A stretch of 25,105 bases of DNA from an uncultured Clostridia bacterium. GTDB taxonomy: Bacteria; Bacillota; Clostridia; Oscillospirales; Acutalibacteraceae. This document shows, piece by piece, positions 2 through 6,225 of this stretch. The stretch is taken from contig CAMOCU010000001.1 of assembly GCA_946610835.1 (NCBI GenBank), positions 1 through 25,105 on the forward strand, in the 5' to 3' direction. Made by a program: the position numbers and the translations under genes. A model generated the notes under the pieces. That model ran no database searches and was not told the DNA's origin. It was given only the letters and a program-made list of their open reading frames with translations. The first letter of the stretch is position 1; each line of letters starts with the position of its first letter.

Positions 2-2314
2 GGGAACGTATTCGTTGGGGCAGATTATCGCAGGTGATGCAAGCCAGTCGCCGTGAAATCCCATAAAGGGCATGCTCAGCGCAGTTTCGGCGCCGTTCAA
101 ATTGGACAGGCGGATATAACCCTCTACATAAAATCCGTTGGTAAACACTTGCGCATTGTGCGCCAGTTCGGCGGCATCCAGCGAGACTGTCAGCGTGATC
201 GTGCGCGTTTCGCCCGGATGCAGGGTAAAGCTGCGGGGCATATTGCCGGAGACGATCGTGTAGCTCAGCGGAACACTTTTGCGGTTGATCACAGGCGTTT
301 CAGTCAGCACGCCGGAATAGTTGTCAAAATCCCGCGAAATCTCGTAATCGTCGGTGATCACATCCAGATCCAGATGATCATAACGCACATCCTTGTCGGA
401 AACGTTTTTGACCGTGAAGGCCATATCGAAAGTGTCCTCTATTCCGTCGCCGAGATTCAGCGCCGTATGACCGCTTTTGTCGGTCAAAACCGCGTTGGCT
501 GCCGCGGCACGACCGATATGGATCAGACCGGCGCCCACAGCGCGCGGTGAAGCGGCAACGCCGTCCGCCACGACCGGCTCAGCGGTGGACATGAGCAGAT
601 TTTCCATCAGATCGGCGCGCTCCGCAGCAGGGAGAGAAGGATACTTTTTCTCCATACTCTGTCGAAGCAGCGCGGCTGCGCCGGTTACATGAGGCGACGC
701 CATGGATGTGCCGCCCATAAATTCGTACATTCCGCCTGTGATTGCGGAAAGGATAGTGCCGCCCGGCGCGGCCATGTCAACCGTCATACGCAAATCGTCG
801 CTCACACCGTAGCTGCTGAAGTCGCTGACCTGCGGCTGCGCGGCGGGTGCGGAATGGTACTGTGCGAATTCCGTTGTGATAAATTGTGATTTGCTGTGAT
901 ACAGACGGTAAGCGTCCAGATCGGCAACAACCACAACTTCGATATCGCCGCTGTAAGAAACTGTTGCTGCCAAATCAAACAGGGATTCCGGAACGATCAG
1001 ACCAAGGATACCTTTGTTTGCAATTTTGAGGATATAGGCATTGACATCGCCTGTAACATCATAAATCAGGGCGATTTTTCCTTTCAAATCGCCGGGAAGA
1101 CCCCATTTTGCCACGGGAGCAAGCGTGCCTTCCGCAGGGAAGTTGTAGGTTGATGCAAGGCTCAAAACACTCTTGCCCTCGTCGTAATGCAGTGCCTTGA
1201 CGCCGACTTTGGCGGATTCAGAATACAGATTTTCCACCGAGGCAATACTCGAAGCATCCGGGATACCGTTCGGAATACCGTTGGTTCCGTTGTCCGGCAG
1301 CTGCGTGAATGTGTTGGTGATGGCAGAATTGCCGGCCGCGGCACAAACCAGAATACCGTTCTCACGCGCATTGGTGACTGCCTCGCACAGCAGCGCGTGC
1401 GCCGGATCGTTGGGAATTTCAAATTCCATCCCGACGCTCATGTTCATGGCTGCGATGTCAAATTTGGCGGCATCGTCAATAGCGGAAAGCAGATTGCCCA
1501 GAAAGATCTCGTTGTCAATGACGTTGATTTTGAACATCAGCACCTGCGCTTCGGGTGCCACGCCTTCGATCGAGCTGCTGTTGCCTGCGGCGATACCGCT
1601 GACGTGTGTGCCGTGATCCGGCGCAGCATCATTGAGATCGTTCACTTCCACATCTTTATCGTAATAATCGTATGCGAAAGGTACCTTTGCGCTTTTGTAC
1701 ACGTCGTCCGCGCGGACGCCTTCGGTGTGCAGTGAAGTGTCCCGGATGATGGCGGCAATGTCGTCCTTGGAATACTTCGCTGCGCTTTCGTCTGTCAGCG
1801 TCATGGCTTCATGATCCCATTGAAATCCGCCGTCAATTACGGCGACTGCCGTACCCGCGCCGTCGTATCCGAGCGCGCGCATCTCATCCGCGCCGATCAT
1901 ATCAACTGAGCCCAGACGCGCACCGCTGCCGACCGGCTCGCGTACGGCGCGCACATAACCGATTTCGATTACATCCGTAACGCCATCCAGTGCGCGCAGC
2001 TCCGCAGCGTCCCGCCGCTGTGTTTCGATCGTTACGCCGTTGAGCGCATGTGTATAGGTATGCAGTACCTGCGCGTCATCTGTTGCATCCTGTACGGCTT
2101 TGACACCGGATCGGACAGCTTTTTGTGTGCGTTTGAGCGCCTTTTGCGCGTCCTGCCCTTTTGCTGCGGCAGCAAGAACGCCATCGCCCTCAAAGCGAAC
2201 GAACAGCGTCGTCTTTTCCCGGCCGTGCATTCCTTCCGCAACAGCTGACGCAGATACGCTCACACAGCCCAGACACAGGCAGATTGTGAGTAAAACAGCC
2301 AAACATTTTTTCAT
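2..2314 (-). CDS. S8 family (subtilisin/lactocepin-like) secreted serine protease, partial (3' end runs off window); host gene
   Basis: Manual translation of an open minus frame missing from the ORF track: ATG at 2314 after GAGGAG, signal peptide MKKCLAVLLTICLCLGCVSVSASA, I9-like propeptide (YTHALNGVTI), catalytic triad VAVIDGG / DHGTHVSGIAAG / GGTSMASPHVTG, oxyanion AAGN, SDFSSYG. Confidence 0.93.
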   Translation of the reverse strand, partial: MKKCLAVLLTICLCLGCVSVSASAVAEGMHGREKTTLFVRFEGDGVLAAAAKGQDAQKALKRTQKAVRSGVKAVQDATDDAQVLHTYTHALNGVTIETQRRDAAELRALDGVTDVIEIGYVRAVREPVGSGARLGSVDMIGADEMRALGYDGAGTAVAVIDGGFQWDHEAMTLTDESAAKYSKDDIAAIIRDTSLHTEGVRADDVYKSAKVPFAYDYYDKDVEVNDLNDAAPDHGTHVSGIAAGNSSSIEGVAPEAQVLMFKINVIDNEIFLGNLLSAIDDAAKFDIAAMNMSVGMEFEIPNDPAHALLCEAVTNARENGILVCAAAGNSAITNTFTQLPDNGTNGIPNGIPDASSIASVENLYSESAKVGVKALHYDEGKSVLSLASTYNFPAEGTLAPVAKWGLPGDLKGKIALIYDVTGDVNAYILKIANKGILGLIVPESLFDLAATVSYSGDIEVVVVADLDAYRLYHSKSQFITTEFAQYHSAPAAQPQVSDFSSYGVSDDLRMTVDMAAPGGTILSAITGGMYEFMGGTSMASPHVTGAAALLRQSMEKKYPSLPAAERADLMENLLMSTAEPVVADGVAASPRAVGAGLIHIGRAAAANAVLTDKSGHTALNLGDGIEDTFDMAFTVKNVSDKDVRYDHLDLDVITDDYEISRDFDNYSGVLTETPVINRKSVPLSYTIVSGNMPRSFTLHPGETRTITLTVSLDAAELAHNAQVFTNGFYVEGYIRLSNLNGAETALSMPFMGFHGDWLASPAIICPNEYVP

Positions 2315-2504: not shown

Positions 2505-3572
2505 TCAGAGACAATTAACTGCGTTTTTTAGCTGCTCGAGATCTGTATGTGTATATGTAGCGATGTTGACTTTGACATCTTTGTGCCCCATAAGGCGCAT
2601 GCGCGTTTTTGTGTCGACACCTTTTTTGTTTAGCAGGCTATTATATGTGTGCCGTGTGGAATGCGGGGTTAGCTTTTCTGCATGTCTGGCGGCTATCCCA
2701 AGTTCCTCGATCGTTTGATAAAACGCTTTACGAAGCTGCTTTTTTGTATAGGGCACATATCGGCCTCCTTCGCGTCGGCAGAATATCGCGGCCTGATCGT
2801 TGGCCAAGTGTTTATCTATGTATTTTTGGATTTTTGGCGGGATCGGAACAACGCGATCTTTTCCGGTATCCGTCTTAGAGCCGCCTGTAAGCGTGTGATT
2901 TTTGGAATCATAACTAAACCGTGTAAGAGCACAGAATTCTCCGATTCGCCATCCGGTATAGCACATAACAAGGATCAAATCGGCAATTCCAACGTTCCTT
3001 TCCGCAGCTTTCTCCAAATCCAGCAAATCAAGATCGGAAAAGATTTCTTTCTCTTTTTCGTCTTTTTTGGGCAGCACGATATATGACGCATAGTTTTTGT
3101 TGATTATATCCTGCTGGATGGCGTACTGCTCCAATCGGCCTGCAAGGAGTTTGATATTGCTGAGGGTTGCGTGGGATCGTCCGCTTTCCATCGCTCGGTC
3201 AACGCAAAACTGGAACTGTGCTGTTTTAATCTCTGTAACTTTGTATCGTTTGATCGGCGCAAGCCACTTCCATGCTGCATTGTATACGTATTCCCCCGAT
3301 TTTCCAATCGTCTTGTACGTTATGGTCGACCAATCCGCAAAAAGCTTTTCAAGCGTAATCTGTGCGTTCGGGGCAGGAGGACACAGCCTATATCGGTACA
3401 GTGCTTCGAGTGCTTCTTGTCGCGTTGCGAAATATCCGATGATTTTCCGATTAAAATTACCAAGTTCATCTTCCATTCCCGGCGCTCTGGCAATCCACGG
3501 CTTTCTTCGATTTCCGGACAGCTTTGACACCGATCCGCTGCCGTTTGCGTTTCTCTTGTACTTTTTGGGCAT
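2505..3572 (-). CDS. int: Tyrosine recombinase / phage integrase
   Basis: 355 aa; N-terminal NGSGSV..LSGNRRKPW arm-binding segment; catalytic residues TGWRIGE (R), GSKT (K), PHSTRH (H-x-x-R), MGH, TYTH (Y). Confidence 0.96.
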   Translation of the reverse strand: MPKKYKRNANGSGSVSKLSGNRRKPWIARAPGMEDELGNFNRKIIGYFATRQEALEALYRYRLCPPAPNAQITLEKLFADWSTITYKTIGKSGEYVYNAAWKWLAPIKRYKVTEIKTAQFQFCVDRAMESGRSHATLSNIKLLAGRLEQYAIQQDIINKNYASYIVLPKKDEKEKEIFSDLDLLDLEKAAERNVGIADLILVMCYTGWRIGEFCALTRFSYDSKNHTLTGGSKTDTGKDRVVPIPPKIQKYIDKHLANDQAAIFCRREGGRYVPYTKKQLRKAFYQTIEELGIAARHAEKLTPHSTRHTYNSLLNKKGVDTKTRMRLMGHKDVKVNIATYTHTDLEQLKNAVNCL

Positions 3573-3598
3573 AAAAAGACCTGCCTTTCAAAAATTGG

Positions 3599-3627
3599 TT
3601 GCATTTTCCAAAGGCAGGTGATATACT
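3599..3627 (+). promoter_or_regulatory. Antisense SigA-type promoter in the integrase leader
   Basis: TTGCAT (3599-3604) - N17 - TATACT (3622-3627) with TGn extension. Confidence 0.65.
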
Positions 3628-3633
3628 TATATT

Positions 3634-3706
3634 ATCGACCTGCCTTTTAGCTGAGGGTTCGGTTGATATTCATCCGTTCGGTGTTCCCAGCACCGGGCGG
3701 TTTTTT
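3634..3706 (+). ncRNA. Putative ~70-nt antisense RNA to the int leader
   Basis: Lies between the promoter and an intrinsic terminator; no ORF; the 5' end GACCUGCCUUUU is complementary to the int SD region. Confidence 0.5.
3674..3706 (+). terminator. Intrinsic terminator
   Basis: CCGTTCGGTG-ttcccag-CACCGGGCGG-TTTTTT; two G.U pairs favour the plus-strand RNA. Confidence 0.75.
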
Positions 3707-3738
3707 ATTTCATCTCTGCTTCCTTTTGTATACGTCCT

Positions 3739-4278
3739 TTATATGTCCTTGTTTTTGCCATAGAATACTCTGCCGCTATCCAAATTCTTTTTGTATGCAC
3801 ACGCTGCGGCTGCGTAGATCAGATCATCATGCAGGCAGTGACCAGCATCGCTGCATTGCTCGAATTTTCCGCAGCATCCGAAAGTCGGAAAGGAAAACGC
3901 ACTAAGAAATATCGGCTCAAAAGCATCACGTAGAACATCAGCATAGCGAAAAAAATCGACCAACTGTACGCGCCGCCATGGGTCGCTGGGCACATCCATA
4001 ACCGGGACGTTGTACGCCCGAAGTATTTCTGCAGACTTTTCCGGGAAAGAGACAAATTGAACTTTTGATCCAAGATAGACTCGCGCAAGTGTGGAACAGC
4101 CGCTTTGACGGTATACCGTACTTCCATAGGTCATAACCAAATAAGTGATCGGAAGGTCAGCTTGCTTGCCGGTTCCGGGACGTAGCTCTAAAGATATATA
4201 GTCAAGATATCGTTGAGGGATAAAGCTTTCAACGGCTTTCAAAACAGCCTCCGCTGATTGTTGCTCAAACAGATTCAT
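3739..4278 (-). CDS. Hypothetical protein with C-terminal Cys/His (putative Zn-binding) motif
   Basis: 179 aa; RBS GGAGG; C-terminus FGCCGKFEQCSDAGHCLH...CAYKKNLDSGRVFYGK. Confidence 0.75.
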   Translation of the reverse strand: MNLFEQQSAEAVLKAVESFIPQRYLDYISLELRPGTGKQADLPITYLVMTYGSTVYRQSGCSTLARVYLGSKVQFVSFPEKSAEILRAYNVPVMDVPSDPWRRVQLVDFFRYADVLRDAFEPIFLSAFSFPTFGCCGKFEQCSDAGHCLHDDLIYAAAACAYKKNLDSGRVFYGKNKDI

Positions 4279-4296
4279 ACTTATTCCTCCGCGTTA

Positions 4297-5202
4297 TTAT
4301 GCATTCACTATATCATAGAAAGTCAGCTCATCAATTATATCAATGTCCTGCCCCGCGAGTTTGAGCTTCTCGGCTTTCTTTTGTTTTGAGGATTTTTCTC
4401 CGTGAAGAATAGCGTTGTAATCGTTGTTTCCGAGAATCAGATAATTGGTGTTCCTTGTGACGCTGTTATCTAATATACCTCCAAGGTTGACAACAAGCTG
4501 CATGGCCTCCTGTCTGACCATCTTTTCAAGGGTACCTGTAAAAACAACGTGTTTTCCAAAGAAAAAACCATCATCATCTATTTCTACAGCAGAGGGAACG
4601 ATTGTACTGATGTCAATGCCTTTTCTGTAACGCTGTTTTCTTTTTTCTTTTTTCCATAAATCCTCAATCTTCAGATTTTTTTCTGACATTGTGGCTTTTA
4701 TGGCGTCATACAATTCTTTCGTGGAAATACAATCCGCTAAGGAACGATGCGCGTTGTTGGATAGCCCTAAATATGCAGTCAAATCGGATAATCTGTGATG
4801 CTTCAATTCCGGAAAAACTTTTCTGGCAAATTGCATCGTATCCATGTAAACGTTATCGAGCGGTTGTGAGAAGCCCTCGCTAAGAAACCTGATGTCAAAA
4901 GAGGTATTGTGCCCGAGAATGACATCGTCACCAAGGAAGGATATTACAGCGTCTTTTACCTCCATAATTGAGGGCATCCCTTTAACCATTTCGTTAGTGA
5001 TTCCTGTCAATTCGGTAATAAAAGGATCAATCTCATATTCGGGCTGAATTAACTGAGCGTATTGCTCTACAATCTTATTGTCCCTAACACGAAGTATGCC
5101 GATTTCAATTACTTCATCATAATAAGCAGACAACCCTGTGGTTTCGGTGTCTAAAACACAATAATCATCAATTATTTTTTTGGTGTAATTTGTGTTCCCC
5201 AT
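4297..5202 (-). CDS. DEDDh 3'-5' exonuclease (DnaQ/Pol III epsilon-like) fused to a BRCT domain
   Basis: ExoI VLDTETTG, ExoII GHNTSFD, ExoIII AHRSLAD; BRCT FFGKHVVFTGTL...VTRNTNYLILG...SSKQKKA. Confidence 0.9.
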   Translation of the reverse strand: MGNTNYTKKIIDDYCVLDTETTGLSAYYDEVIEIGILRVRDNKIVEQYAQLIQPEYEIDPFITELTGITNEMVKGMPSIMEVKDAVISFLGDDVILGHNTSFDIRFLSEGFSQPLDNVYMDTMQFARKVFPELKHHRLSDLTAYLGLSNNAHRSLADCISTKELYDAIKATMSEKNLKIEDLWKKEKRKQRYRKGIDISTIVPSAVEIDDDGFFFGKHVVFTGTLEKMVRQEAMQLVVNLGGILDNSVTRNTNYLILGNNDYNAILHGEKSSKQKKAEKLKLAGQDIDIIDELTFYDIVNA

Positions 5203-5223
5203 CTTTACGAAAATCTTCCTCTC

Positions 5224-5865
5224 TCACATATCGAATTGTACACGAACAACTTTACCGAGCACTTTCACGTTAGTTTCGCGCAGATCGTATTCCTGTACTT
5301 CATGAGCCGGATTCGTAGACAAAGGGATCAAGTATACAATGTTGCCAGTGCGAATGAACTTTTTGACTGTCGCATCGCTATCTCCTACAAGAACGATGGC
5401 AATCTCGCCGTTTTCAACGATGTCCTGCTTACGGACGATGACGATATCATTGTCTTGGATGCGCGCAGCGTTCATGCTGTCGCCAACGATCCGCAGTCCG
5501 AAGTATTCGGCACCCCCGTTAAGCTCTGTCAGAATATATCCCTCTATGTTCTCATCCGCATAAAGCGGTAGCCCGGCACGTACGCATCCAAGCAACGGAA
5601 TTTTGTGCGTTGGATTATATGAAAACGTACCTGGGGTGTCCTCAACATCCTTTTGATCCCATCCCATAAGTTGTTCTGGTGATGAGCCAAGAGCTTGTGC
5701 AAAAGCAATTATTTTGGACTGACTGACATCTCGTATTCCAAGTTCGATTTTGTTAATAGCAGAAGACGTTTTATACCCAACGCGCTCTGCAAGCTCCTGC
5801 TGTGTCAAATTTTGAGCTTCCCTGAGACGTTTAATTCGTTCACCGATTTTCACTGTACGTCCCAC
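5224..5865 (-). CDS. LexA/CI-like prophage repressor (XRE HTH + S24 peptidase)
   Basis: HTH LTQQELAERVGYKTSSAINKIELG; Ala-Gly cleavage site CVRAG; catalytic GDSM and TVKK; implies RecA/SOS inducibility. Confidence 0.95.
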   Translation of the reverse strand: MGRTVKIGERIKRLREAQNLTQQELAERVGYKTSSAINKIELGIRDVSQSKIIAFAQALGSSPEQLMGWDQKDVEDTPGTFSYNPTHKIPLLGCVRAGLPLYADENIEGYILTELNGGAEYFGLRIVGDSMNAARIQDNDIVIVRKQDIVENGEIAIVLVGDSDATVKKFIRTGNIVYLIPLSTNPAHEVQEYDLRETNVKVLGKVVRVQFDM

Positions 5866-5876
5866 CTTTCATTACC

Positions 5877-5961
5877 ATTATACACAAAATAGCCGGAATG
5901 TCAAATATTTTTTATGTTTTTCAAAAATGTTGTTGACAATTCGGCTAAGCTATGCTAAAAT
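5877..5961. promoter_or_regulatory. Divergent lysogenic/lytic promoters
   Basis: Leftward TTGACA (5904-5899) - N16 - TATAAT (5882-5877); rightward TTGACA (5933-5938) - N17 - TAAAAT (5956-5961) with TGn. Confidence 0.8.
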
Positions 5962-6225
5962 GTCAGCAGTTAGCCAAATTGTCTATTTTGGGAGGTGATA
6001 AACATGACTGATTCAAAGGCACTTCGGGCGGCTATCATTGTTGCAGGATACAAAATTCCGCAACTCGCCGAGATGCTGGGTATTTCTGTGCAATCGTTTT
6101 ATAATAAGATTAACAATCGGACTGAGTTTCTTGCGTCAGAAATTGATGCTTTGTGCGCGGCTCTCCATTTAACAGTTGTACAGAGAATGTCTATTTTTTT
6201 TGTACGAAAATAGCCAATTTGGCTA
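5890..6225. promoter_or_regulatory. Four 15-bp repressor operators, consensus TAGCC-N5-G(G/T)CWA
   Basis: 5890-5904 tagccggaatgtcaa; 5933-5947 (rc) tagccgaattgtcaa; 5971-5985 tagccaaattgtcta; 6211-6225 tagccaatttggcta. The first two overlap the -35 boxes. Confidence 0.75.
6004..6213 (+). CDS. Cro-like XRE HTH regulator
   Basis: GGAGGTG RBS then ATG at 6004; HTH KIPQLAEMLGISVQSFYNKINNRTEF; divergent from the repressor. Confidence 0.85.
   Translation: MTDSKALRAAIIVAGYKIPQLAEMLGISVQSFYNKINNRTEFLASEIDALCAALHLTVVQRMSIFFVRK

Follow-up and report, generated by a model that had tools for sequence, protein, structure and literature searches.

We have found an RNA regulatory cassette in the 166-bp spacer that separates a phage integrase gene (int) from its upstream neighbor, orf179, in a 25,105-nt stretch of DNA from an uncultured Clostridia bacterium (contig CAMOCU010000001.1; the whole stretch is hereafter called the window). 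The window belongs to a Clostridia metagenome-assembled genome (MAG) of 59% completeness and constitutes the left end of a prophage. We are highly confident that the cassette is a real, selected feature. With more moderate confidence, and judging from its sequence, we favor the reading that the spacer works as a countertranscript-driven attenuator of integrase read-through, in which a small antisense RNA (sRNA) would promote termination of transcripts that enter int from upstream. By analogy, the cassette probably keeps the integrase off in lysogens in a manner akin to the copy-number control of some plasmids.

The int leader contains three complementary boxes, designated A, B and C in the order in which they are transcribed (Table 1). 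A preliminary description of this DNA had already noted them, with correct coordinates for A and B and an offset of one base for C (given as 3577-3587). They derive from an 11-mer, GACCTGCCTTT, that occurs on the plus strand at 3578-3588 and 3637-3647, with an inverted copy carrying one mismatch on the minus strand at 3610-3620. The centers of these direct-inverted-direct copies are 32 and 27 bp apart. Three matches to the 11-mer compare with 0.38 expected, and none of 100 shuffled sequences gave three. A repeated genomic element was considered as a source of the boxes and rejected, as the 11-mer occurs only a single further time in the 1.67-Mb assembly and a covariance model of the leader matches the window's own genome once. 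Boxes B and C lie in a hairpin with 17-nt arms that are 88% complementary and a 7-nt loop, 3' of which the int strand reads C-UUUUU-AUG. Box C resembles the consensus AAAGGAGGU, and AAAGGAG or AAGGAGGU is found at the same place in related versions. The int-strand leader folds with z = -3.1 and has B:C in its minimum-energy fold. The A:B duplex is significant against dinucleotide shuffles (p=0.001), and a fold of the nascent RNA pairs A with B.

On the opposite strand, a predicted promoter and terminator define an RNA of about 73 nt that starts at box A, and both lie where the preliminary description had placed them. The promoter is the top plus-strand site according to a purpose-made scorer, and it is nested within the DNA of the int-strand hairpin: its -35 element lies inside the B:C loop, its spacer covers box B and its -10 element sits between A and B. 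The plus-strand stretch 3634-3709 folds as two hairpins (-32.8 kcal/mol, z = -5.7). The predicted sRNA covers A (3637-3648) but stops at 3634, short of B; that end is 46 nt upstream of the int Shine-Dalgarno (SD) region (3578-3588), which is not overlapped. A 17-bp AT-rich near-palindrome, GATATA-N5-TATATC, was also observed at 3620-3636, with a -10-like hexamer on each strand, and one occupies this place in all close versions. A weak int-directed promoter may overlap the antisense one, in which case binding of RNA polymerase to the two would be mutually exclusive.

The cassette was compared across about 17 sequence-diverged versions (18 in promoter scoring), labeled here by L-numbers. For the tests of A:B pairing and of nascent folds, terminator arms were set by hand, since automatic terminator finding mis-parsed several versions. 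The alternative pairing of B with A or with C, proposed from the window alone, recurs in these diverged versions. The B:C stems covary between clades, covariation across related int leaders being one of the checks suggested earlier, and a U-run follows the hairpin in all versions examined. The box sequences are unrelated between versions, yet the A:B and B:C pairings are both kept. A complement of B is present upstream at p<0.05 (dinucleotide shuffles) in 15 of 17 versions, compared with 2 of 17 for a reversed-B control, and A always lies within the template of the sRNA 5' hairpin. When nascent RNA lacking C was folded, B paired with A in 14 of 16 versions, and many flipped to B:C when C was added. 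Where A and C differ from each other (L005 and clade II), the differences are C-to-U changes that retain G.U pairing with B on the int-strand RNA.

Conservation extends to the antisense unit. Its promoter scores at least 9 in 17 of 18 versions, versus 4 of 18 on the int strand (L005, L009, L020 and L153). The -35 element, located in the B:C loop, is TTGCAT, TTGTAC, TTGCAA or TTGACT; the -10 element is usually TG-extended and falls between A and B; and predicted RNA lengths are 70-83 nt. The U-run of the plus-strand terminator hairpin (T) is always on the antisense strand, where 97.7% of cells in the stem are standard pairs (45 of them G.U), compared with 78.1% when the stem is read on the int strand. 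Changes on both sides were found in 12 of 13 pairs of this hairpin, a result matched by 0 of 500 shuffles. In 16 of 17 versions T folds more stably on the antisense strand, by a mean of 6.3 kcal/mol. The 5' hairpin of the sRNA likewise exceeds its int-strand complement in stability in 16 of 17, by a mean of 4.8 kcal/mol (mean z, -2.5). These asymmetries are the pattern that would be expected from selection on a plus-strand RNA, and a further consequence would be that box A is only poorly sequestered on the mRNA. The sRNA sequence itself differs between versions, unlike a trans-acting seed. Sequence and comparison thus establish that the elements of the cassette exist, are conserved and are strand-specific, and that the alternative pairings can form.

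The apex of hairpin T has a peculiarity of its own. Near-identical cassettes (L107:12764-12909 versus L113:2373-2518, and also L088 and L135 versus L132) have inverted hairpin tips, reading GTGTTCCAGCAC in one orientation and GTGCTGGAACAC in the other, such that the apex flips and the stem is kept. The apex is also semi-conserved (~GUGUUCC-AGCAC; alignment A2, columns 62-76) even where other parts share no sequence. This conservation exceeds the needs of a terminator, and the apex may make a loop-loop contact with the complementary hairpin of the int-strand RNA.

The layout of the prophage fits the read-through from the repressor operon that had been proposed earlier. The gene int lies downstream of the operon, and no int-strand terminator-like site was found between the repressor promoter and the int spacer (3739-5865 scanned); read-through into the int leader is therefore expected, with the promoter at 5877-5904 as its likely source. 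Transcription entering the spacer would be let past hairpin T, which should not stop an int-directed polymerase because it is mismatched and lacks a U-run on the int strand. In the nascent leader, A would pair with B as an antiterminator, B:C would be prevented and the polymerase would cross the U-run. With A:B formed, the ribosome-binding site (RBS) in box C would be open and Int would be made. The opposite-facing promoter nested in the terminator DNA would fire at the same locus, giving the RNA of about 73 nt that ends at T and is fully complementary to the A region. We infer that this sRNA is produced, that it binds the nascent leader and that it raises termination: by masking A, it would allow B:C to form and transcription to stop 5 nt before the int AUG, and those transcripts that escape termination would have their RBS buried.

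Table 1. Features of the int leader and of the neighboring genes in the window.
Feature	Position	Strand	Details
Host subtilase gene	2-2314	-	
Tyrosine integrase gene (int), the regulated gene	2505-3572	-	open reading frame (ORF); 355 aa; PF00589 E=4.9e-20; phrog_1 integrase E=9e-49
U-run (UUUUU in int-strand RNA), interval from stem to AUG	3573-3577	-	kept in related versions
Box C, 3' terminator arm and int SD region	3578-3588	-	AAAGGCAGGUC
B:C hairpin, predicted intrinsic terminator and SD trap	3579-3619	-	arms 3579-3595 / 3603-3619
Antisense RNA promoter (predicted)	3599-3627	+	-35 TTGCAT 3599-3604, 17-nt spacer, -10 TATACT 3622-3627, TG 3619-3620
Box B, 5' terminator arm, can pair with A or C	3610-3620	-	
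Predicted antisense sRNA, ~73 nt	3634-3706	+	5' hairpin 3634-3667, terminator hairpin 3674-3700, U-run 3701-3706
Box A, antiterminator partner of B (10 bp)	3637-3648	-	nt 4-15 of the template of the antisense RNA
Plus-strand terminator (T)	3674-3706	+	stem 3674-3700, 12 pairs, then T-run 3701-3706
orf179	3739-4278	-	179-aa product; no Pfam or PHROG match
Repressor operon (repressor, exonuclease, orf179)	3739-5865	-	co-directional with and upstream of int
DEDDh exonuclease-BRCT fusion gene	4297-5202	-	PF00929 and PF00533
cI-like S24 repressor gene	5224-5865	-	
Repressor-operon promoter	5877-5904	-	TTGACA-16-TATAAT, 12/12 consensus
Cro-like gene	5995-6213	+	

Several observations weigh against attenuation by an antisense RNA. 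The -35 element of the window's antisense promoter agrees with the consensus at just 3 of 6 positions, and because of this a simple promoter scan missed the exact site and listed only a shifted 9/12 site. B:C shows a weak strand preference, with the int strand giving the more stable hairpin in 9 of 13 versions (p=0.065). Significant A:B pairing was absent from L156 and from the mis-parsed L020, although L107, a near-twin of L020, has A:B at p=0.002; in L153, A:B overlaps just the bottom 3 bp of the terminator. The versions are related to one another, and the statistics given above overstate their independence. Once C is included, B:C is the minimum-energy structure of the window leader, no sRNA being needed, and the default state of int could therefore already be 'off'. 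Lastly, the switching on of Int for integration or excision is not accounted for, one idea being a burst of synthesis before the sRNA accumulates.

The preliminary description had read the boxes as a switch at the RBS, and in its pure form this would be an anti-SD switch acting on translation: B would mask the RBS, A would unmask it, the antisense RNA would shift the balance and termination would play no part. A 5' hairpin is known to sequester the SD of IS200 tnpA, box C of the window and of L167 is SD-like and lies 7-11 nt from the AUG, and B is anti-SD-like. Masking of the SD by the hairpin does hold for the window, its close relatives and L167. In L153, L154, L160, L161 and L166, however, the hairpin and its U-run form an ordinary intrinsic terminator, and the SD and start codon are separate from it, 30-50 nt further downstream, which makes masking impossible. 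A U-run follows the hairpin in every version examined. Because these distant versions keep the hairpin so far from the SD, the conserved function is transcription termination, and SD masking would be a feature added where the start codon abuts the hairpin. We consider a purely translational switch quite improbable. A different account would make the spacer a passive insulator combined with promoter interference. B:C would be the terminator of the repressor operon, T would end a small transcript that matters mainly for its promoter, which would occlude or collide with polymerases heading into int, or that yields an RNA with some unrelated function, and A:B would play no part in regulation. This would be in keeping with the fact that each hairpin is a good terminator for its own strand, with the B:C fold that the window leader already adopts, with the weak int-strand -10 that overlaps the antisense -10 in the AT-rich palindrome and would make polymerase binding exclusive, and with int-strand promoter scores of 9.5-10.5 in L005 and L153. 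It does not predict the A:B pairing found in 15 of 17 diverged versions, nor the strand-specific selection on the sRNA 5' hairpin, and the sRNA lacks the conservation across versions that a trans-acting seed would be expected to have. Moreover, in L153, L154, L160, L161 and L166 the interval from terminator to SD is too short for a promoter, so every int transcript must cross the terminator, and an unregulated terminator is hard to square with a functional int. We regard passive insulation as unlikely, while giving it some weight.

The boxes could also be recognized as DNA by a protein that controls the nested promoter, serving as arm-type sites for Int or as sites for an excisionase or repressor. 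A direct-inverted-direct series of three 11-mer copies around a promoter would suit such a role, which is nevertheless very improbable given that the boxes are wholly different between versions while A:B and B:C complementarity is kept, and that the A-versus-C changes in L005 and clade II are those C-to-U changes that preserve G.U pairing with B. In addition, attL and arm sites would be expected past the int 3' end (2315-2504), and the cI/cro operator region shares no motif with the boxes. Nor do we see more than a slim chance that the sRNA is an activator, with its complement of A (box A') mimicking B, pairing with C in trans and blocking formation of the terminator. In the window, box A' is fully complementary to C across 11 nt, and direct pairing of the sRNA with C was one of the options put forward in the preliminary description. 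Hand-pairing showed that this complementarity is not conserved, being lost through central A.C mismatches in L005 and clade II. In the window, A':C pairing would itself block the SD, and full-length pairing with the A region of the read-through RNA is far more favorable.

Other candidates were tried and rejected. A shared operator with the cI/cro switch was dismissed since the divergent promoter region (5866-5994) has other repeats and no GATAT-N7-ATATC palindrome. For a trp-type, ribosome-mediated attenuator, the window has an 8-codon ORF (MNINRTLS) and L016 a GTG-started relative, and L005, L172 and clade II have no start codon there. With regard to plus-strand coding, the ORFs at 3599-3763 and 3663-3905 have no Pfam or PHROG match and run through the terminator. 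A search for tRNA and tmRNA genes found none. The Rfam search that had been proposed as a check (Rfam 15, at gathering thresholds over the whole window and also at permissive E-values) returned nothing above threshold; the best sub-threshold scores were 28.1 bits against a gathering threshold of 44 for L10_leader and 21.5 against 67 for Spy779816, the latter on the int strand instead of the sRNA strand.

The versions of the cassette come from prophages of Clostridia of the gut and rumen, and nearly all of them directly precede a gene for a tyrosine or large serine recombinase. Among IMG/VR contigs and MAGs, relatives of Int with 43-52% identity have this arrangement in front of int, and a DNA pattern for the AT-rich center of the cassette retrieves further copies. 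In equally close Int relatives that are without the cassette, int is coupled directly to the upstream gene (L007 and L008 types), and inheritance of the cassette is therefore not simply tied to that of int. Of 150 other genera of the family, 13 contain diverged copies according to the leader covariance model, as do 4 genomes from other families of the order. Of the 15 best matches that had not been used for training (L172 added), 12 are followed by a gene for either a tyrosine integrase or a large serine recombinase. The former follows the cassette in L154, L155, L156, L160, L161, L166, L167, L170 and L171, and the latter in L153 and L168. A metagenome pattern scan for close variants yielded one new version (L172) and one false match, and blastn searches with the window's version and with the commonest one gave no match among cultured or GenBank phages. 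Wherever the flanking ORFs of a diverged version were listed, the gene upstream of the cassette is co-directional, and its identity varies (M78 peptidase, DUF4411, exonuclease or SHOCT).

In L156 (1019-2176) the integrase after the cassette is split into two ORFs, a SAM-like N-terminal part and a catalytic part, and is probably a frameshifted pseudogene or an assembly error. A diverged copy in L158 (1501-2620) precedes a Bro-N (antirepressor-type) gene and not an integrase. An RNase_T exonuclease gene also precedes the cassette in L170, which may be compared with the DEDDh exonuclease-BRCT gene of the window.

The use of one cassette with recombinases from two unrelated families points to a regulator that is modular and exchangeable. 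A broader proposal, which we put forward tentatively and regard as possible and somewhat doubtful, is that the cassette represents an undescribed, portable RNA family specific to recombinase genes. Within prophages of gut and rumen Clostridia it would be exchanged among integrases of unrelated types (tyrosine and large serine), and it would serve as a timer or dosage sensor. A burst of Int would come from the earliest repressor-operon transcripts made upon infection, and accumulation of the antisense RNA would then shut Int off by termination, uncoupling it from the constitutive repressor operon in the lysogen.

Countertranscript-driven attenuation controls plasmid rep genes (pT181 RNAI/II-repC, pIP501 RNAIII and pAMbeta1), as reportedly worked on by Novick et al. 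in 1989 and by Brantl and co-workers. The likeness to our cassette is extensive: these plasmid systems share its Gram-positive setting, and in both cases a leader-internal promoter on the opposite strand gives a small antisense RNA, which for the cassette is predicted. There is further agreement in a leader with mutually exclusive antiterminator and terminator, in a terminator that directly precedes the regulated start and carries the SD in its distal arm, and in an antisense RNA that targets the 5' partner of the antiterminator and not the terminator itself. In contrast, the gene regulated here is a phage integrase and not a replication initiator, the cassette has no sequence or covariance-model similarity to those plasmid leaders, its antisense -35 element lies inside the terminator loop, its input is read-through from the repressor operon as opposed to a dedicated rep promoter, and it is known from sequence alone. 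By analogy, then, the cassette would work like the pT181, pIP501 and pAMbeta1 attenuators without being a member of their family.

These plasmid systems are closer to the cassette than IS200 and Tn10, whose transposase control had been offered earlier as its analog. In IS200 tnpA/art200 and Tn10/IS10 RNA-OUT/RNA-IN, a DNA-recombination enzyme is likewise held low by RNA; IS200 combines a terminator against impinging transcription with an SD-sequestering hairpin, and RNA-OUT of Tn10 is a stable antisense RNA of ~70 nt. Their antisense RNAs, however, overlap the SD or start codon and act on translation or stability, whereas the predicted antisense RNA of the cassette overlaps the antiterminator arm only, ending 46 nt before the SD, and the conserved element is a terminator. 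The immunity region of satellite phage P4 (CI RNA; seqA, seqB and seqC) resembles the cassette in having three short direct-inverted-direct boxes whose pairing leads to premature termination in a phage leader. The P4 regulator differs in being processed from the sense transcript and carrying the middle box, while that of the cassette is antisense and carries the complement of A.

Premature termination of a sense transcript promoted by a cis-encoded antisense RNA, as proposed for the cassette, occurs in Anti-Q/prgQ of pCF10. RnaG/icsA of Shigella is described in the same terms (PMC2879508), and RnaG is given as 450 nt (PMC3185424). The genes, sizes and hosts of Anti-Q/prgQ and RnaG/icsA are unlike those of the cassette, and there is no homology. 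Spy_sRNA779816 of Streptococcus pyogenes prophage 370.3 (RF02589) is 89 nt by Northern blot and is encoded between int3 and the next prophage gene (PMC4829319). It shares with the cassette a predicted promoter and terminator and a position beside a prophage integrase, and differs in that its function is unknown and no switch has been described (PMC4829319). It is a positional precedent and, by its score, not a relative. Our literature search found no description of antisense-driven attenuation of a phage integrase.

To our knowledge, it is largely unknown how temperate phages of Gram-positive gut bacteria silence an integrase gene that lies beside a constantly transcribed repressor operon. The cassette offers a concrete, testable answer to this question and a new RNA family for Rfam-type curation, and its proposed action would carry a plasmid copy-control mechanism over to the control of lysogeny. 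In about 150 bp it combines a one-way terminator, a switchable terminator and a strong promoter, and could be useful for the engineering of Clostridia.

A minor observation concerns the other side of int. At 2405-2426, within the 190 bp that separate the host subtilase gene from the int 3' end, are two tandem 11-mers, AACTCTTAAGG / AAATCTTAAGG, which are candidates for attL or for arm-type Int sites.

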